Shown here: positions 1,724 to 64,000 of the stretch, piece by piece
Numbering within the stretch: the stretch's first letter is position 1
Layout: each line of letters starts with the position of its first letter
NCBI GenBank assembly: GCA_964016885.1
Contig: OZ024742.1
Coordinates: 310,744,001-310,808,000, forward strand
Reading direction: 5' to 3'
DNA: 64,000 nt
DNA from: Eledone cirrhosa
Lineage: Eukaryota
Position numbers and translations under genes: made by a program
The notes under the pieces: generated by a model
Databases searched by the model: none
Seen by the model: only the letters and a program-made list of their open reading frames with translations
Told to the model about the DNA's origin: nothing

Positions 1724-4700
1724 CCCCGTGACCAAGAAATACCGGGATGGCGGCCGGCGGGGAATAGCCATGTCTCTAGGGGAGAACGACCCCTCTAGTC
1801 TTGGTTGACACTCGTTCTAGAAGTGGTAACACGAAATGATTACCCCTTGGCGGATAAGGATAAAACGCGACAAAATAAAGTAAATGTCTAATGATAAAAT
1901 CTCATACCGGATCGGCCGTCACCCGGGTAAAAAAGGGCCGCGTCCCTCAGAGAGGAACCAGACTGGGGTCGAAAAATCAGCTAATGGTTCAAACCTTCCC
2001 ATCACTTCGGAGCTGGAGACCTCCCATAACCGGAATACTCCTACTGTTGGCCCTCCATGCTCACCACCAAGAAATCCAAAGAAAAAGAGAGAAAAATGGT
2101 CAAGGGAAGATAATAAAGAAGTCCTTGAGGCTTTCTACACTGCCATGTACTACCCATCAAATACATCGAATACAGAACAAACATATATCAACTGGAAAAA
2201 GAAACATCCCGAAAACAGAGACTATATTGACAGTAACAAACTAGCCAATATACGAAGAAATATTGTAAGAAAAAAGTTACTAACTGATATAGAAATTGAT
2301 CAGATCAAGCTAGTAGCACAAAGTCAGCGAAGGGAAAATGAAGCATGTGTCAGTGAAAACGAGGTAAACTGTAACACTTCGAATCCCAGGGTTGGGGCGG
2401 AATCACTGGCAACAGAACAAATTAAAGAAAGGAGCGAAAAAGTGGAGGGAGTGCATGCTCAGGATGAAACTCCAAATGAAAATAATGAGATCGTAAATGA
2501 TAAAGAAATGAATGAGAATGAACTTGCCAACTTGAAGGATGAAATTATGATCGAATGGATGAAAATGAAAGAATCTGACATGGAGCAACGAGACACCCTC
2601 CCTAAGATCCAGAACTCCAAACAGAACCAAAAGATAATACACAAGACTAACATAATTCTCAAAAACATTATCATCACAAACAAACTAAACATTACTGACT
2701 TAAATCATCTTTATTATGCATCGGCTAAAGTCACCACTCACTTATGTGGAGTGAAGATGAAAAAACAAAGGAATTCCAACAAGAAATCTACTTGGCAAGA
2801 TAACATCAATCGCCAAATAAACCTTCTCCGATCTGACATAGACATTTTAACAAACTATAAAGTAGGTGAACATGTTAAACAAACTAAACTTAGAAAATTG
2901 TAAAAAAAGTACAGTATAAGATCAACATGTGACATAGACATGCTGATAGAAACAATCAAGCAAAAAGTGTCGGCCAAAGCTGCTCGTATAAGGCGCTTTG
3001 AAAAACGATCTAGATTCTATAAGGACAATAATATGTTCAAAAACAACCAAAGAAACTTCTACAGAAAAATTGGTAAGTCAACAATAACTGCTAAATCAAT
3101 ACCACCCAAGGAGGAAGTGCAAGAATTCTGGGAAAAGATCTGGGCCGAAGAAAAAGTTCATAACATACATGCCCCATGGATAGACAGACAAATGAAAGAA
3201 ACAGCTCACCTTGAAGAACAAACATGGGAAAATATAACAGTTGAACAGTTGCGCTTGGCTCTAAGAAAAACCAACAAATGGAAATCCCCAGGAAAAGACA
3301 AAATACAAAACTTTTGGATAAATGCCTTCACAGAGTCTCATGAGCTGTTAGCCCAACTTTACAATGAAATAGTTAAGGAGCCAGAAAAGATACCATCATG
3401 GCTAGTTAACGGCATTACATTCCTGCTACCGAAGAATGATGAGACAAACAATCCCAAAAATTACAGACCGATAACCTGCTTGACCACAATGTATAAAATT
3501 TTAACATCAGTCCTAACTGAATACACATATGACCACCTGATAACAAATGACCTATTTCCCATTGAGCAGAAAGGGTGTAAACGAGGTTCATATGGCTGTA
3601 AGGATCAGCTTCTGGTTAACAAAATGATACTGGAAGATTGTCATAATAGACACAAAAATCTATCGATTGCTTGGATAGATTATAAAAAAGCATTCGATAG
3701 TTTGCCACACAGTTGGATTGAAAAATGTTTAGAGATTTTCAAAATATCCCCCGTTGTCAGGAGGTTTTTGTCATTCAGTATGAAGACATGGAGAACGACA
3801 CTCCTTTTGAATAGTGAAACAAAATCACTGGAAGCTGGAGAAGTTAATATTAATTGTGGAATTTTTCAGGGTGACTCTTTATCACCGCTTTTATTCTGCA
3901 TCGCACTTATACCATTAAGTAAAATGCTCAATGAAACAAAACATGGATATAGAGTCTATGACAAAACCATTAATCACCTGTTCTACATGGATGACCTGAA
4001 ACTATTTGCAAAAAATGATGAACAATTGCAAGGGCTATTATCCACTGTGGAAGCAGTTCAGTGATGACATTAAAATGGAGTTTGGACTGGATAAATGCGC
4101 CAAAGCAACGTTCACCAGAGGAAAGCTGCTGAAGAGTTCAGACATTAATCTTGATCGGGGGAACGTGATAAGAGAGTTTCATCAAGAACAAACTTACAAA
4201 TATCTAGGTGTTTGTGAAGGAGACGGAATCAAGCACTCGACAATGAGGGAAAGGATAAGGAAGGAATGTTACCGCAGAGTCAGAGCAATCTTAAGAACGG
4301 AATTGAATGCAAGGAATAGGATCGATGCCATAAACACGCTTGCCATACCAGTAGTAACCTACAGTTACAATGTCATCAACTGGTCAAGCACAGAGATCCG
4401 TAGGCTCGATACAAAAATCCGAAAATTCTTAACCATGCACAGAATGCATCACCCTAAGGCAGACATAGATAGAATATATCTCCCTAGGAAAGAAGGAGGA
4501 CGTGGGTTAATCCAGTTAGACATTGCGTTGAAAACTGCAACAATTGGATTATCCACATATCTAAGGGAATCACATGATTGGATGATCAAACTCGTTTTGA
4601 AACACGAAAGCACCAAAAGATCATATTCCATTACAAAAGATGCACAAAGATACAGTAATGGACTACAAATTTCAGAAGTCCCATTTACTGCTGAAATGGA

Positions 4701-5675
4701 AAACACAGAAAAAGCAAAGCAGGTAAAAGTAACTGCAAAGAAAGAACTGCTACAGAAACTGGCTAAGAAATGGCAAGAAAAGCCTCTGTATGGAAAATAC
4801 CCAGAGCGAGCTAACAATCCTGATGTTGACAAAACTTTAACCCATCAGTGGTTGGCATCCTCTGGACTGAAATCGGAGACTGAAGGACTGATTATATCGG
4901 CACAAGATCAGTGTCTGCCAACAAAAAATTACCAAGCCAACATAATAAAAAATGGGTGCAGCCCATTATGCCGTGTATGCAAAAAACAACCAGAGACCAT
5001 TGACCATATAATTTCAATGTGCAGTCCTATAGCTCCAACCGAATACCTAAACAGGCATGACAGAGCTGCACAATACATACATTGGATAATGTGTAAGCAT
5101 TTTGACCTGCCCCATCAAAAGAATTGGTGGGAGCATCAACCACCTCCCATACTTGAAAAAGATCACATCTCAATCTTGTAGAACTTTAGCATCCAAACAG
5201 ACCGAAAAATAGATGCAAATAGACCTGATATAATATTGAAGGACTTTAAAAAGAGGGTATGCCTGCTAATTGATATGTCTGTTCCAATAGACAAGAATGT
5301 ATCTATAAAAACATTTGAAACATTGAGCAAGTATAAGGACCTGGAGATAGAAATTGGAAAAATGTGGAAATTGAGAACTAAAACAATACCAGTGGTTGTA
5401 GGCGCTCTGGGAATGATACCTAAGGGGTCTAACGACTACTTATCGCAAATCCCAGGAAACCCGCGTATAGGAGAAATATAAAAGATAGTACTAATGGGAA
5501 CTGCCCATATACTAAGGAAGATCCTGTCAATATAAGTACATCACAAGTCTAAACACTAAGGATGCATGTGTGAATATGTATGTTCTTTCTTGAACATGGC
5601 GGACCTTGTTGTCTCTTGAGGTCACTGGTTGTGACTTGGTGATAACTCGTATGAACATAAAGCAAGATAAATGCA
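1720..5675 (+). mobile_element. Near full-length R4-clade (Dong-like) non-LTR retrotransposon, RT + CCHC finger + restriction-like endonuclease, disrupted
   Basis: ORF pieces 1884-2903, 2940-4064, 4006-5181, 5236-5481 join into one ORF. RT motifs: WIDYKKAFDS, GIFQGDSLSPLLF, YMDDLKL. C-terminus: CRVC..ETIDHIISMC, RHD, RPDII..LIDMSVP. Premature stops at 2901, 5179, 5479 and a frameshift near 4045. Flanked by (AAT)n on both sides. Confidence 0.92.
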
Positions 5676-30403: not shown

Positions 30404-31360
30404 AGATCCGGTAGTTGTGAAGAGCATTAGTGGAGAGTGATGTAGTAAGCTCTCGACATATGATCCGGCAGTTGTGGAGAGTGATGTACTGAGCTCTCGA
30501 CATATGATCCGACAGTTGGAGCGTAGTGTAGTAAACTCTCGACTTATGATCCGGCAGTTGTGGAGAGTGATGTAGTAAACTCTCGACTTATGATCCGGCA
30601 GTTGTGGAGAGTGATGTACTGAGCTCTCGGCGTATGATCCGACAGTTGGAGCGTAGTGTAGTAAACTCTCGACTTATGATCCGGCAGTTGTGGAGAGTGA
30701 TGTACTGAGCTCTCGGCGTATGATCCGACAGTTGGAGCGTAGTGTAGTAAACTCTCGACTTTTGATCCGGCAGTTGTAGAGAGTGATGTACTGAGCTCTC
30801 GACGTATGATCCGACAGTTGGAGCGTAGTGTAGTAAACTCTCGACTTATGATCCGGCAGTTGTAGAGAGTGATGTACTGAGCTCTCGGCATATGATCCGG
30901 CAGTTGGAGCGTAGTGTAGTAAACTCTCGACTTATGATCCGGCAGTTGTGGAGAGTGATGTAGTAAACTCTCGACTTATGATCCGGCAGTTGTAGAGAGT
31001 GATGTAGTAAGCTCTCGGCATATGATCCGACAGTTGGAGCGTAGTGTAGTAAACTCTCGACTTATGATCCGGCAGTTGTGGAGAGTGATGTACTGAGCTC
31101 TCGGCGTATGATCCGTGTGGAAAGCGACCTAGTAAGCTCCCGATATGTAATCCGTCAGTTGTGGAGTGCCATCCAGTGAGCTCTCAACATCTGATCAGTC
31201 AATTATGGAGAGCGTTGTATTAAGTTTCCGACTAGATTTCCATGTGGAAAGCGATGTAGTAAGCTCCTGGCGATAGATTCATCAGTTCTGGAGTTCGATG
31301 AGCGATGTTGTAAACTCCTGGCATATAATCCGCCAGTTGTGGAGAGAGATGAGGTAAGAT
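30404..31360. repeat. GC-richer minisatellite of alternating 44- and 42-bp units
   Basis: tgatcc recurs at 30461, 30505, 30547, 30591, 30635, 30677, 30721... and decays after ~31115. Confidence 0.92.
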
Positions 31361-36098: not shown

Positions 36099-36120
36099 AT
36101 ATTATTACTATATATATCTA

Positions 36121-37330
36121 TCTACGGCGGGTAAAATTCCCGAGATCCATGGACGAGTTCTCTCCAGCGGTCTCTGTCCCTCATTATCGCTTCCATGTCC
36201 TGCGTCTCCAACAGACCAGTGTCTGTCCTTAACATACGTTAACCTTGTTCTTCCTCTTCTAGTGTGTCCATGTAGGGGCTCCCACAGGAACACTGAGTGC
36301 AATGTCAACTCTGGATGTCGGTGAGCATGTCCAGCTAACCTCAGTCTCCTCTGTGTCACTTTTGAACTGACTTTTGGGAGGCTCCCATACAGATCTGAGT
36401 TTTTCATCCTCAGTGTATACTGATTAATGTTCAGAGCCATCCTCAGCATTCTCGTGTAGCACCCATCCACCATCTGAGATGGAGAAGAAGCTCAGGGACA
36501 ACCAGAACGGCTTCAGAGAGGGAAGATCAACCACCAGTCACATCCTGATGCTGAGGAGGATATTAGAGGGAGCTAGAGCAAAGTGCCTTCCTGCGGTTAT
36601 GGTTTTCATTGACTTTAGGAAGGCCTTTGATTCTGTGGACCGTTACTGCCTGATGAAGATCTTAATGGCTTATGGAATCCCCAAGAAGATAGTAGACCTG
36701 ATATCACTGCTCTACACCAACACCAAAGCCCAAGTCGTTACACCTGATGGGATGACAGAGTTCTTTGAGATACTGGCTGGAGTGCTCCAGGGAGACACAT
36801 TGGCTCCCTACCTTTTTATCATCGTAGTGGACTATTGTATGCGCCTTGCACTGGAGAATCACCAGGACTCTGGCTTTACTGTAGCACCGACTCAGAGCAG
36901 GAGAGTTAAGGCGAAAAGGGTATCAGATGCTGAATTTGCCGACGACATAGTTTTGGGGACAAATACAGTGAAGGAGGCAGAGGATTTGATGCGGGAGGTT
37001 GAGACTGTGTCGATGAGTGTGGGGCTGAGAATGAATGAGACTAAAACAAAATATCTGGTAGAGAATGTTGAGAAGCCAGAGGGGATCACTAATGTAGGCG
37101 GGAAGCCGCTCGAATTGGTTGAGGGCTTCCTGTATTTGGGAGCAAATATTGGGAATACGGAAGATGATGTGTTTGAGAGGAAGAGCAAAGTCTGGGCGGC
37201 GTGCCACAGCTTGAGATCCGTGTGGAAGTCGGACCTTCGTAAAGATCTGAAAATCCGCCTCTTCGTTGTTGTAGTGGAGTATGTGCTGCTGTACGGGTCT
37301 GAGACTTGGACACTGACCAAGAAACTCACT
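36121..37330. mobile_element. RTE-like LINE with a 5' inversion: 3' part minus (36121-36477), upstream RT part plus (36474-37330)
   Basis: Both parts match 51359-52910. The plus part ends at aaactcact, exactly where the minus part (cagatggtg) resumes. RT motifs QGDTLAP and FADD. Confidence 0.9.
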
Positions 37331-57300: not shown

Positions 57301-59017
57301 ACCACAAGAATTCTTTCACAGATCCAAGCAAAAAATCTTCAACAGCACTATCAGGCGTACTCTGGCAACTTAAGCTAGATAACGTTAGATATTCGACGGC
57401 TTGGAATATAGTCTCAAGAGGGATTCCTTTTAATTCATCCTCTGAGACATGTGACCTCTGCGCAGAGGAGATATTCTTTATACTAAAATCTAAAAATTCC
57501 CTTAATCTACGGACAAATTTATTCAGTTGCTGCAAACATAGATTAAACTCAACTTTTAAATATAAATTTAAATTTAAAATGTAGTATATTTAGTTTGATT
57601 TATAATTATTTGGGAAACTAGCCGATAAATCTTTCGATTTCTTCTTTTTATTCTTCTTTTTTATTTTTATTTTTATTTAAACATTCTTCATGAAAATTAA
57701 ACTACCCTAAAAGTTGATGCTCCAAATATTTCGAATAAACGTTACACTAGATAAACTTCTATATTAAATATAAGAACACATGTAGACCAAATGGGCATCC
57801 TAAACTTTTTGAAATGATTTTTGCTAGACGCGACTTGATAAATAATTTTTAGCTTTATCTGTTTTCGACTCTGATGCTTATAATGAACTTGGCAATATAT
57901 TGTCAATTAATTTTGAAGGGTTGATCTTTGTGGTTTATTTTTATTGTTGTAATATTTTCTAATATTTTTATTTTTAATATGTAATATTTTTTGTAATATT
58001 TTTTATTTTTTAGTTTTCTATTTTATTATTATTTATTATTATTATCATTATTATTTTTTGTTTTTGTTTCTGATATTTTTTATTAATATATTGAAATCTG
58101 TTCTCTATTTCTGCTTGATAGATAATCACGTAGAGTAAAGACAAGAATAGTATTGTTAAAATTAATATAGACTCTATATATATGTGTATATATATATACA
58201 CATATATGTATGCTTAAATTTTTATAGCACAATGAGAATGTTCTCCGTGTGAAATAGGGGTTTGCAGAATTGATCACGTAAATTCACATCGATGTTTGTA
58301 GTTATCATATAAACATATGAATTTTTTAAAACTAAACATAAGATCATTACTTTTCACACATTATGGATACGTGTCTCATTCAGGAATACTGATATTTACA
58401 TTATAGCGCCTGGTTTTTATACGTACTAATACTTCTACATTAAAACATAGGGTTTTTAAATTATGCCTCGCCTATGTCTGGTTACTTTTCATTTTTCTCT
58501 CTATATAACGTCTGGTTTCTTTCCTAACCACATATATCATTAATACTAGAGCTAAATAAATAAATAAATAAATAAATGTATCATTGATACGCTCATTCAA
58601 CGGATGTCCAACTACCTACTTTTCTCTATATATATCTATCTCTATCTATTTCCTCTCTCTATATATATCTCTCTCTGTTTCTTTACATGAAGTTCTTCTC
58701 TTTATCTATCTTTCCATATCTCTATTTTGTTGCATGCATTTCTTCTTTTTTCTTCTTTTTCTTCGTTTTCTTTCTTTCTTTTCTTTCTTTCCTTCTTTCT
58801 CTCTTTCTTTCTTTTTGTTTACAATTTTTCACTGCCAAATCAACTTTTTCAAATACAAGTCGATGTTGAACGGTATGTCAAATCTATTTATCTATAAAAC
58901 TGTCTATATTGTATTTTGTCTGAGGAAGGCATAACATATTGTTAATATGATATCCCTGAAATATATATAATGAAATAAATATGGTTTTATAAATATAGTT
59001 TCCATTTATTTAATATC

Positions 59018-59020
<3 letters not shown>
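54317..59020. mobile_element. Penelope-like (Neptune-like) element as a 4.7-kb inverted structure
   Basis: Plus 56549-59020: VNFLD, SNHP, WFAPP, CNCRDRSKCPL, IIY..YVGST, CDLCAEE, then a 1.4-kb 3'UTR. 54317-56361 is the reverse complement of 56944-58982. 56361-56548 on minus encodes FDITMGSSDSAQVTDLVGLFL. Confidence 0.9.
58912..58977 (+). ncRNA. Type I hammerhead ribozyme at the PLE 3' end (inverted copy at 54320-54385)
   Basis: tattttgt CTGAGGA agg...cct GAAA tatata TA atgaaata. 8-bp stem I with two GU pairs; palindromic loop III. Confidence 0.7.
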
Positions 59021-59099
<79 letters not shown>

Positions 59100-60098
59100 G
59101 TAAGCTATCGCTGTATTTTGACTAAAGATATTAAAGAAAATTATTTACCAATGATGTGTTGGTGTTGGTGTAATGGTAGCACAGTGGTCTGGTTTACCAA
59201 AGATGTGGGTTCGACTCCCATGCACGTCAATACTCATCTTTTTCCATTTCTCCGAGGGTTCTTAACCCCACTATCAGGCTAAATAATTTTCTTTAATTTC
59301 TTTAGTCAAAATACGGCGATAGCTTACATTTATAATTTCAAACTTGCTCGCTGTTTCGAAAATATTTTTACTTGATATATATATTTTATATATAATGTAT
59401 GTATATATATATATATAATGTATGTATATATATATATATAAATATATATATATACATACATTATATATCGACACACGATTTCATATCAAAAACCTTGCAA
59501 AACATTATATATATATTCTTCAAGACTATACAAATCATTTGAAGTTTTTTCCAAATTGAAGGATGAGTATTTTAAACTTTGTTTTATCATGAGTTAAGGC
59601 TCTATTGATTTTTCCCTGGATTTCATTAAATTCTGTTGGATGAATCTATATCCAGATTCTTTTTGAGTTGAGTTTGAATTATTTTTCCCACATCTTACGT
59701 TAACTATTTTCCCATTTTGACGCTATAGTCACTTATATATTATGGAATACTGTTGGCTTTTTGCTACAATATTTTCTATACCTTTCATTTATATATTTAT
59801 ACTCGGATTTCTTTCCTAGAGTGCTTAAATTATTTGTGACTAATCCCGGTATTTTTTTTTTATGAAAAAAACCGCGATAATATTGCTTTTTGTTGAACTC
59901 CTTATTGTAGAGTTTTTTTTCGGAATATTTTTGACTGTTGTTTCTTGTAAACAAACATTCGTCTCATTCTGACGTCACCAGCCCTGTCTTTCCACATGTG
60001 CGTTTTATTTTTCATAATCACGCATGATGGCGAACTAGCCTGCTTTTAATTCCCTTTTTGGCATATTAATCAGTGAGAAATTTTGGGTATCGAGTTGA

Positions 60099-60178
60099 GC
60101 TCTGCTGAGGATCGAATTCCAAACGTGACAATCTCCACTGAAATTTTTCGTGAAATAGTCTTCAAGACTATACAGAGC
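60099..60178 (+). ncRNA. Intact type I hammerhead ribozyme; cleavage AUA after 60172
   Basis: gctctg CTGAGGA t cgaa...ttcg t GAA atagtc ttcaa gactat A cagagc. Perfect 6-bp stems I and III. Confidence 0.88.
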
Positions 60179-60753
60179 ATTTGAAGTTTTTTCAAAATTG
60201 AAGGATGAGTATTTTAAACTTTATTTTATCATGAGTTAAGGTTCTATTGATTTTTCCCTGGATTTCACTAAATTCTGTTGGATGAATCTATATCCTGATT
60301 CTTTTTGAGTTGAGTTTGAATTATTTTTCCTACATTTTACGTTAACTATTTTTCCCATTTTGACGCTATAGTCACTTATATATTATGGAATACTATTGGC
60401 TTTTTGCTACAATATTTTCTATACCTTTCATTTATATATTTATACACAGATTTCTTTCCTAGAGTGCTTAAATTATTTGTGACTAATCCCGGTATTTTTT
60501 ATTTTTTATTTTTTATTTTATAAAAAACCGCGATAATATTGCTTTTTGCTGAACTCCTTATTGTAGAGTTTTTTTCGGAATGTTTTTGACTGTTGTTTCT
60601 TGCAAACAAACATTCGTCTCATTCTGACGTCACCATCCCTGTCTTTCCACATGTGCGTTTTATTTTTCATAATCACGCATGATGGCGAACTAGCCTGCTT
60701 TTAATTCCCTTTTTGGCATAATAATCAGTGAGAAATTTTGGTTATCGAGTTGA

Positions 60754-60833
60754 GCTCTGCTGAGGATCGAATTCCAACCATGACCATCTCCACTAAAGAT
60801 TTTCGTGAAATAGTCTTCAAGACTATACAGAGC
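60754..60833 (+). ncRNA. Intact type I hammerhead ribozyme; cleavage AUA after 60827
   Basis: Same stems and cores as 60099-60178. The differences fall in loop II. Confidence 0.88.
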
Positions 60834-61540
60834 ATTTGAAGTTTTTTCAAAATTGAAGGATGAGTATTTTAAACTTTATTTTATCATGAGTTAAGGCTCT
60901 ATTGATTTTTCCCTGGATTTCACTAAATTCTGTTGGATGAATCTATATCCTGATTCTTTTTGAGTTGAGTTTGAATTATTTTTCCCACATCTCACGTTAA
61001 CTATTTTTCCCATTTTGACGCTATAGTCACTTATATATTATGGAATCCTGTTCGCTTTTTTGCTACAATATTTTCTCGCTCTCTCTCTCTCTATATATAT
61101 ATATATATCCCTATGCACATCCATCGACGTTGATTCCGCTGTGGAGCCGTGCGTGGTGATGATCAGTGAGAGAGACGTGGAGTTCCGAGGGGTTGACACT
61201 AAAGAACAGGGTCTTCTTTTTAAATTTACCTGTGACAGAGTGCCTGGACACACACACACCCTTAGCTGTTTTTGCATCAGTAGACCAGTAAGATGGAGAA
61301 CCTCTACCACTTCGATGACAAGAAATACCTCCATAGAAAAATGGAGTGGTGGACCGCAGCCATGCGGACTCCAGAAAATCATTATCAGGTAACAAAAGTG
61401 ATCATACATGCGATGTTACTATTCAATAACAAAACATACAACCAAGAAGAGGTGACGGCCATCAGCGTCAGCATCGCTGGCGACGTGGCCAACTATATAT
61501 TTTCGCCTGTCTCAAAGTCCAGCAGTAGGAAGAGGGAAGC

Positions 61541-62242: not shown

Positions 62243-62978
62243 ATGCTAATTGGGAGAGGAAATGGTATATATTTTATCTAATAATTCTAAAGACATGATT
62301 TATGATATATTGCTCTGATTATTTAATTTATTAATTCTTCATTGAGCCACAACGTGACCGGTTGCAAAACACATATATATTTATGACTTTATGTTTATGT
62401 ATATGTAAATCTTTATATTTAATAATCTCCCGTTAGGTTGAGATACAATTGGGCGATATTGGGCTGCGCTTTCTAGCAACAAGCCTACCCGCCGTAAGCA
62501 ACTAATCACATTCTTTCTAACTTGACCACTGCCACGACACGATTCTTAGCCATTTTTTAATCTATTTTTGGCGCGATCACTTTGGAAAATTAAATGTCTA
62601 ATTTTGAGTTCGCTCCCGATAGTCTGATACTCTGGACGTATCCTATTATTGGATGTCTAAAAATACGGACGAAACCATGGTAGAGATATAATTACGGTAT
62701 GTACACATTTCTTCTAAGTTTGAATTTACACCTAATTGTGTATGGTTGACGGTATATTTAGTCAATTTCTACATGCCGTTGAAATGTTGGATAAATACTC
62801 TATCTAAGGGCCACCGCGAAGAGGCCGCTTTCGGTTATTTGTCGGAAATTTCTTCATAGGAGCCTTTATTCTTATAGCTTGGTCTAATTGATTTTTTTAT
62901 ATGGTTAATTATGCTAATTGGGAGAGGAAATGGTATATATATTATCTAATGATTCTAAAGATATGATTTATGATATAT
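62243..62978 (+). mobile_element. ~668-bp tandem-unit element with a decayed HHR (62613-62685), truncated by an RTE insertion
   Basis: 62243-62310 repeats at 62911-62978. Motif: ctc ccgat-a gtctg...cggac GAAA ccatgg TA gag. Confidence 0.55.
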
Positions 62979-62982
62979 CTAT

Positions 62983-64000
62983 CTAAGGCGGGTAAAATTC
63001 CCGAGATCCATGGACGAGTTCTCTCCAGCGGTCTCTGTCCCTCATTATCGCTGCCATATCCTGCATCTCCAACAGACCAGTGTCTGTCCTTAGGGCATCA
63101 ACATATGTTAACCTTGGTCTTCCTCTTCTAGTGTGTCCATGTAGGGGCTCCCAAAGGAGCACTGAGTGCAATGTCAACTCTGGATGTCGGTGAGCATGTC
63201 CAGCCAACCTCAGTCTCCTCTGTGTCACTTTTGAGCTGACTTTTGGGATGCTCCCATACAGCTCTGAGTTTTTCATCCTCAGTGTATACTGATTAATGTT
63301 CAGAGCCATCCTCAGCATTCTCGTGTAGCACCCATCCACCATCTGAGTGAGTCTCTTGGTCAGTGTCCAAGTCTCAGACCCATACAGCAGCACAGACTCC
63401 ACTACAGCAATGAAGAGGCGGATTTTCAGGTCTCTACGAAGGTCCGACTTCCACACCGATCTCAAACTGTGACACGCCGCCCAGGCCTTGCTCTTCCTCC
63501 CAACCACATCATCTTCCGTATTCCCAATCTTTGCTCCCAAATACAGGAAGTCCTCAACCAATTCCAGCGGCTTCCCGCCTACATTAGTGATCCCCTCTGG
63601 CTTCTCAACATTCTCCACCAGATATTTTGTTTTAGTCTCATTCATTCTCAGCCCCACACTCATCGACACAGTCTCAACCTCCCGCATCAAATCCTCTGCC
63701 TCCTTCACTGTATTTGTCACCAAAACTATGTCGTCGGCAAATTCAGCATCCGATACCTTTTTCGCCCCAACTCTCCTGCTCTGAGCCGGTGCTACAGTAA
63801 AGCCAGTGTCCTGGTATTTCTCCAGTGCAAGGCGCATACAATAGTCCACTACGATGATAAAAAGGTAGGGAGCCAATGTATCTCCCTGGAGCACTCCAGC
63901 CAGTATCTCAAAGAACTCTGTCATCCCATCAGGTGTAATGACTTGGGCTTTGGTGTTGGTGTAGAGCAGTGATATCAGGTCCACTATCCTCTTGGGGATT
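62983..64000 (-). mobile_element. RTE-like LINE, third copy, running off the right edge
   Basis: Open 333-aa RT ORF, nearly identical to 51460-52911. Confidence 0.93.

Follow-up and report, generated by a model that had tools for sequence, protein, structure and literature searches.

The tandem array at 59517–61076 of the window (the whole stretch of Eledone cirrhosa DNA analysed, 64 kb in length) is most probably a non-LTR retrozyme, i.e. a non-autonomous element that probably descended from the 3' pseudo-LTR (pLTR) of a Penelope-like element (PLE) and was probably inserted by a PLE RT/GIY-YIG enzyme. We assign a probability of about 0.72 to this assignment. The first-pass annotation had already proposed a non-LTR retrozyme, and the array agrees with the published definition, as it is tandem and non-coding and has two complete type I hammerhead motifs. 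Head-to-tail units, lack of coding capacity, a GC content below 50% and unit size are all retrozyme features found here. The array also carries a type I motif with an MFE below −5 kcal/mol in two consecutive units, which is the test used by Li et al. (2026), run here with a purpose-written descriptor rather than with the RNABOB model of that study.

The array extends over 1.56 kb and consists of head-to-tail repeats of about 650 bases (Table 1). Self-BLAST of the window aligned positions 59513–60420 with 60155–61076 (94.5% identity) and 59513–59777 with 60810–61076 (95.5% identity), in agreement with the approximately 2.4 direct repeats reported earlier. Measured from cut to cut, the units are 642, 655 and then 249 nt long and about 95% alike, and they differ by 25 substitutions over 641 columns, plus indels. 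The GC content of the 655-nt unit is 31% (203 of 655 nt). The self-BLAST revealed no LTR layout, with no unique middle separating the repeats, and no further copies of the array in the 64-kb window, save one AT-rich match of 37 nt.

Table 1. Positions of the tandem array, its units, hammerhead motifs and flanks in the window.
Feature	Positions	Strand	Remarks
Whole tandem array	59517..61076	+	2.4 units, non-coding
5' remnant	59517..59530	+	3' part of hammerhead stem III to the cut position; without catalytic core
Unit 1	59531..60172	+	642 nt; first 6 nt (stem I 3' strand) with 2 changes
Unit 2	60173..60827	+	655 nt, 31% GC; predicted monomer from two cuts
Partial unit 3	60828..61076	+	249-nt 3' tail; candidate reverse-transcription start point
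Hammerhead motif 1	60099..60178	+	type I; stem I 60099-60104/60173-60178; core from 60105
Hammerhead motif 2	60754..60833	+	type I; as motif 1 save 6 loop II positions; core from 60760
Left flank	59506..59516		short (TA)n
Right flank	61077..61109		CG(CT)n(AT)n microsatellite

Exact identity with the unit sets in at 59517, and the first cut position (59530) follows 14 nt later; the array start had rightly been placed close to a cleavage site, although the distance is 14 nt and not about 13 nt. The ATA at 59513–59515 matches the unit and the flanking (TA)n alike and may represent microhomology with this flank. Beyond the right end of the array, the unit sequence continues with ATA, and the flank at this point is CG(CT)n(AT)n; this end may correspond to a junction into (TA)n, followed later by CT slippage. 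No target-site duplication, which in retrozymes exceeds 4 bp where there is one, was readable at the array, both flanks of which are microsatellites. Each unit contains a TGACGTCA palindrome (approximately 59971–59978 and 60626–60633, identical in both), which we take to be CRE-like, together with a short inverted repeat (59997–60027), also unchanged in both units; these elements are located 130–100 nt upstream of the hammerhead. The palindrome or the inverted repeat could possibly be an internal promoter element.

The two complete motifs are described here with the standard hammerhead numbering and the general core consensus. Both have a 6-bp stem I (GCUCUG/CAGAGC) followed by CUGAGGA and a U, a 4-bp stem II (CGAA/UUCG) with a 30-nt loop II followed by U and GAA, and a 6-bp stem III (AUAGUC/GACUAU) closed by a 5-nt loop, then the AUA cut triplet. 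The base of stem II is a U-U pair rather than the usual G-C. As claimed before, the motifs differ in loop II alone, at 6 of its 30 positions. The cuts are predicted to occur after 60172 and after 60827, and the 655-nt monomer proposed by the first-pass annotation was recovered from the motif positions as the predicted product of these two cuts. However, of the three junctions, two were confirmed to hold a full type I hammerhead; in the first one the 5' half is missing, the stem I strand has two changes and, as there is no catalytic core, this junction cannot cut in cis.

A strict hammerhead descriptor, composed after the motif had been seen but encoding the general hammerhead consensus, found exactly two sites in the window, both of them the array motifs, and no match in 200 block-wise dinucleotide-shuffled windows or in 20,000 shuffled units. 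The covariance-model check suggested earlier was negative, as Rfam yielded no hammerhead over the array, either at the gathering score or at E≤10. The lack of an Rfam match speaks for the motifs being a chance or dead look-alike within an ordinary minisatellite or a local assembly duplication, and the predicted cost of the active fold points in the same direction. However, all the core positions and the three stems are correct twice, shuffled sequences gave no descriptor match, and 25 substitutions in 641 columns, together with the indels, are too many for a simple mis-assembly; we therefore consider this explanation very improbable. That this unusual ribozyme build is missed entirely by Rfam suggests that such ribozymes are under-counted in genomes of this kind.

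Folding predictions were less favourable. The two motifs had an MFE of −20.4 and −23.8 kcal/mol, and the MFE fold was not the active fold. In a 120-nt context, the local minimum was 2.9 and 9.3 kcal/mol more stable than the active fold, and in a 500-nt context, with nearest-neighbour folding, the active fold lay 7.2 and 9.4 kcal/mol above the ensemble, with a pairing probability of about 0 for stem II. The activity of the array motifs is thus doubtful according to these models, which do not include tertiary contacts and Mg and so do not exclude it. Of the mismatches possible at the base of stem II, U-U is compatible with cutting and allows more activity than the others (Perreault et al. 2011, PMC3088659), and the axolotl HHR_Amex2, with U-U at this position, was cut to 22% in 1 h as a monomer (PMC7229834). 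Conversely, eight of nine predicted-active retrozyme dimers from Xenopus (frog) remained uncut in vitro (preprint 10.64898/2026.07.22.740005). We consider measurable cleavage in vitro by the array hammerheads slightly more probable than its absence, and the formation of a circular monomer in vivo by this retrozyme family is proposed more tentatively, at somewhat under even odds. No change was found between the two motifs over the 50 nt of ribozyme, which has a probability of 0.21, and the intact cores are therefore no evidence of present selection at this locus.

Retrozyme monomers are characteristically highly self-paired, and the 655-nt monomer here is predicted to be 58–61% paired. Its folding had a z score of −4.3 against dinucleotide shuffles, and of −2.7 and −1.5 against local shuffles; four control stretches gave values of +1.0 to −3.6, a range spanning the latter two, so that the folding of the monomer did not go beyond that of the controls. 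In four tests looking for a pseudoknot or a blocking helix, pairing of loop II with the upstream flank gave p values of 0.016 (motif 2) and 0.22 (motif 1), and pairing with the downstream flank gave 0.54 and 0.87.

The array lacks a credible ORF, as previously noted: no ORF of at least 120 aa was found inside it, and none of its six frames, read with X at stops, gave a Pfam match at the cut-off, the sub-threshold match being to DUF5757 (E = 0.005; 17.6 bits vs. 25). Comparison with 58 Penelope-like (Hydra-like) proteins gave a best tblastn E value of 0.08 and no HMM domain, and on this basis we rejected the idea, prompted by a by-eye likeness to PLE N-termini, that the minus strand carries the decayed remains of PLE coding sequence. 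These results also bear on whether the array might be the pseudo-LTR of an autonomous PLE from another clade (Neptune, Poseidon or Nematis), with the ORF lost here and kept in other copies. PLEs occur as partial tandems in which a tail extends beyond the hammerhead, the ORF of PAc has its start within the ribozyme, and the direct protein comparison covered Hydra-like proteins only. However, the units of the array adjoin each other directly without an intervening ORF, the six frames gave no Pfam match to RT or GIY-YIG, and the comparison of one plus frame with 231 candidate proteins, a weak test, revealed no homologues. Furthermore, stem III is usually short and palindromic in the hammerheads of metazoan PLEs, unlike that of the array. 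An origin of this kind therefore appears improbable.

The window contains PLE fragments at 42814–45171 and 55763–57542 that match the PLE profile (HMM, E values of 3e-148 to 1e-17) and fit the description of the Hydra clade; an identity with Naiad was rejected in favour of Hydra on the basis of the C-terminal endonuclease, RWK/DKT and CxCX5C. The ORF at 43963–45201 has 58 relatives in a protein search, of which the single one with a species name is from Octopus bimaculoides, and its RT motifs closely resemble, by eye, those of Hydra-1_Obim from this species. In the region 42814–45642, two Hydra-clade fragments lie in tandem on the minus strand, and their 3' end is also present as an inverted copy (43568–44007 vs. 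45167–45642). Another Hydra-clade PLE (56541–59018) lies just upstream of the array and has an inverted, 5'-truncated copy (54192–56361 vs. 56944–59102, 98.4% identity over 2171 nt). PLE and copy together span 54192–59102. The 3' region of this upstream PLE is unusually long, about 1.4 kb, and bears a minimal hammerhead (core at 58920 on the plus strand, mirrored at 54377 on the minus strand) 49 nt before (TA)n. In this hammerhead, which was also missed by Rfam, stem III is an AU palindrome and loop II contains an extended hairpin. The neighbouring PLE thus has a 3' end and hammerhead of its own, different from those of the array.

A second PLE-type hammerhead is present in three copies (46555–46628, 47780–47853 and about 50975–51050), the copy near 50980 having a changed stem II. 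This hammerhead (at 46563, 47788 and near 50980) has a CUGACGA core, an A-G mismatch at the base of stem II, a loop II of about 30 nt and a 3-bp stem III, and after a short tail comes (TA)n, 33 nt downstream in the two copies measured. It may be linked to the Hydra ORF at 43963–45201, by position only. The window holds five or six copies of PLE-type hammerheads, those on the plus strand being located 33–49 nt before (TA)n.

The remainder of the window is AT-rich, with many microsatellites, SINE-like repeats and LINE-type RT fragments. A LINE-type element with an RVT_1 domain lies at 1884–5181, ahead of a 484-nt tandem pair and (TAA)n. Another LINE-type family with RVT_1 is represented by three near-identical copies (94–98%) at 36099–37330, 51259–52919 and 62961–64000. 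A tandem array with periods of 43/86/130/216 nt at 30424–31357 is GC-richer than its surroundings. Between the upstream PLE and the array, a tRNA-like sequence (59161–59229; Rfam tRNA, 37.3 bits; not called by ARAGORN) is enclosed by 55-nt inverted repeats (59093–59147 and 59280–59334, 96% complementarity), with (TA)n directly before them. The region 59093–59334 resembles either a small mobile element that bears a tRNA or the head of a SINE within a fold-back element.

The hammerhead at 46563/47788 and the array motifs share a CGAA...UUCG stem II that is mismatched at the base, and their loops II are of similar, long size, but this likeness is architectural only. The scores of the unit against the four 3' regions of the window PLEs were reached by 42, 92, 41 and 3 of 100 local shuffles, and none of the four stood clearly above local and block shuffles; the homology suggested by a z score of about 5 against dinucleotide shuffles vanished with local shuffles, and we rejected it as a compositional artefact. 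The likeness of the hammerheads alone was reached by 7–25 of 500 shuffles, and some likeness is expected from the shared core. Hydra-clade PLEs use (TA)n as their target (Craig et al. 2021, PMC8557442), as do Naiad and Neptune, and the array insertion site is likewise (TA)n, although TA repeats are very common in the window and this agreement is hence weak. The U-U pair, with the CUGANGA-U ... U-GAA pattern, was counted by eye in 14 of the 26 Hydra-clade rows of File S2 of Craig et al. (PMC8557442), but it is also found in axolotl and is therefore not specific to Hydra. None of five terms for the array motifs matched the supplement text of Craig et al., in which line breaks or cut runs could hide a match. 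The presence of Hydra-clade PLEs in the same window and their (TA)n target make them candidate helpers for the array. A candidate helper clade nearby bears on the questions of which enzyme moves retrozymes and of whether a circle is the template.

A solo PLE 3' end (pseudo-LTR plus hammerhead) might instead have landed once and then been duplicated at the DNA level, with no mobility of the unit and no circular RNA. This is the birth route proposed by Li et al. (2026; 10.64898/2026.07.22.740005), PLE insertions being mostly 5'-truncated single ends according to the same preprint, and it is consistent with the single array locus in the window and with the lack of detectable selection on the ribozymes (p = 0.21). 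However, the solo PLE ends in the window stop 33–49 nt past the cut, whereas the array repeats with a period of about 650 nt, cut-site sequence is present at three junctions of the array, and no parent PLE with the array's 3' region was seen in the window. A recent local duplication would also not predict the excess of differences in loop II described below. We consider this scenario unlikely, if somewhat less so than a PLE of another clade. It should be noted that retrozymes have themselves been argued to be pLTR derivatives (10.64898/2026.07.22.740005), so the two origins posed as alternatives by the first-pass annotation are not opposed in that preprint.

For the retrozyme assignment that we favour, the published steps are transcription, self-cleavage to monomers and circularisation, for the most part by RtcB; an autonomous element, with PLEs favoured, has been proposed to carry out more-than-unit reverse transcription (PMC7229834). 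Here, some copy of the family would give rise to a multimeric plus-strand transcript, the hammerheads of which would cut after AUA, probably slowly or with the help of a protein, given the weak stem II. With a stem III of 6 bp, each hammerhead would be able to act as a monomer and not as a dimer. The 655-nt monomer, with a 5'-OH and a 2',3'-cyclic phosphate, would be closed by a host ligase of the RtcB type. A (TA)n-targeting PLE enzyme, for which the Hydra clade is the nearest candidate, would then nick the TA repeat, and the cDNA would start inside the RNA about 249 nt downstream of the cut site, run through more than two unit lengths and stop at stem III.

The cDNA would have crossed three cut positions, implying either a circle or an uncut multimer as template, or growth of the array at a later time at the DNA level. 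In the green anole, the PLE enzyme cleaves DNA that is AT-rich, begins cDNA synthesis at fixed positions within the RNA, downstream of the hammerhead, and has uncut RNA as its main template (PMC11167929). The mid-unit 3' end of the array therefore need not be arbitrary, and circular and linear multimeric templates cannot be told apart from one locus. The ends of the array do fit rolling-circle reverse transcription, as had been suggested, but they fit the copying of an uncut multimer by a PLE enzyme equally well (PMC11167929). Differences between the units are concentrated in loop II (6 of 30 positions vs. 19 of 611 elsewhere; Fisher p = 6e-4, scan statistic p = 0.055). A single pass round one circle would produce identical units, followed by even drift, but there are more differences between the loops II than would be suggested by drift after insertion. 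This excess leans weakly towards units that differed beforehand, i.e. a multimer or mixed templates, and we therefore lean slightly towards an uncut multimer rather than a circle as the template of the array.

A bolder reading would make this the first cephalopod and the first Hydra-tied retrozyme, with a monomer-cutting Hydra-type ribozyme, a 655-nt circular RNA in octopus tissue and copying by a Hydra enzyme into (TA)n from a fixed internal start that lies 249 nt beyond the cut. The ribozyme, of Hydra type in its long loop II and its CGAA/UUCG stem II closed by U-U, would then have gained a stable 6-bp stem III. We regard the combination as unlikely; if true, it would provide a defined enzyme-template pair for a direct test of rolling-circle retrotransposition.

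The retrozyme assignment would extend the class to cephalopods, for which our literature search, with subscription papers, Repbase and key supplements largely outside its scope, found no report; the terms 'octopus' and 'cephalopod' gave no match in the main text of PMC7229834. Animal retrozymes are a known class, with species-specific families of which new ones are to be expected wherever there are PLEs, so that one more is a modest result. No relatives of the array were found in metagenome contigs with two patterns, and the 3 and 25 pattern matches in viral contigs showed no BLAST similarity to the unit. One of these 25 matches passed a loose hammerhead stem test (viral contig L012, at about 1501), probably by chance.

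The array resembles the non-LTR retrozymes described in its head-to-tail non-coding units with a type I hammerhead per junction (PMC7229834; 10.64898/2026.07.22.740005), its GC content below 50%, its few units and its presence together with PLEs, and it differs from them in its 30-nt loop II, 6-bp stem III and cephalopod host. Its unit of 655 nt is longer than those of invertebrate retrozymes (about 170–400 nt; 350–390 in mussel) and lies outside the 150–450 bp given in the 2020 paper (Cervera & de la Pena 2020, PMC7229834). However, the consensus lengths in the later preprint are 51–972 bp, with a mean of 650 bp in ray-finned fish (10.64898/2026.07.22.740005), and the description of the unit as unusually long could not be maintained.

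Like the array, the Hydra-clade PLE hammerheads, including that of Hydra-1_Obim, are on the sense strand, are followed by a tail and are associated with (TA)n targets (PMC8557442). In contrast to the array, they follow an RT/GIY-YIG ORF and have a near-palindromic stem III and short tails (PMC8557442); the tail of the array, at 249 nt, is much longer than the 33–49-nt tails of the window PLEs. In the 26 Hydra rows, stem III is 3–4 bp and loop II 3–10 nt long, against 6 bp and 30 nt in the array (PMC8557442).

Plant LTR retrozymes are also non-coding, with two hammerheads bounding a monomer of 600–1000 nt (Cervera et al. 2016, PMC4918200), but they have type III ribozymes in LTRs, a unique middle, a 4-bp TSD and a Gypsy partner, none of which is found in the array. 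A plant-type LTR retrozyme was therefore rejected, given the type I topology of the array and its lack of an LTR layout. The axolotl Rtz_353, with HHR_Amex2, is similar to the array in its tandem units, weak stem II and U-U pair at the stem II base (PMC7229834). Its unit is of 350 bp, with about 60,000 motifs, as against 655 nt in the array, and the 2-bp stem III of HHR_Amex2 acts best as a dimer, whereas stem III of the array has 6 bp (PMC7229834).
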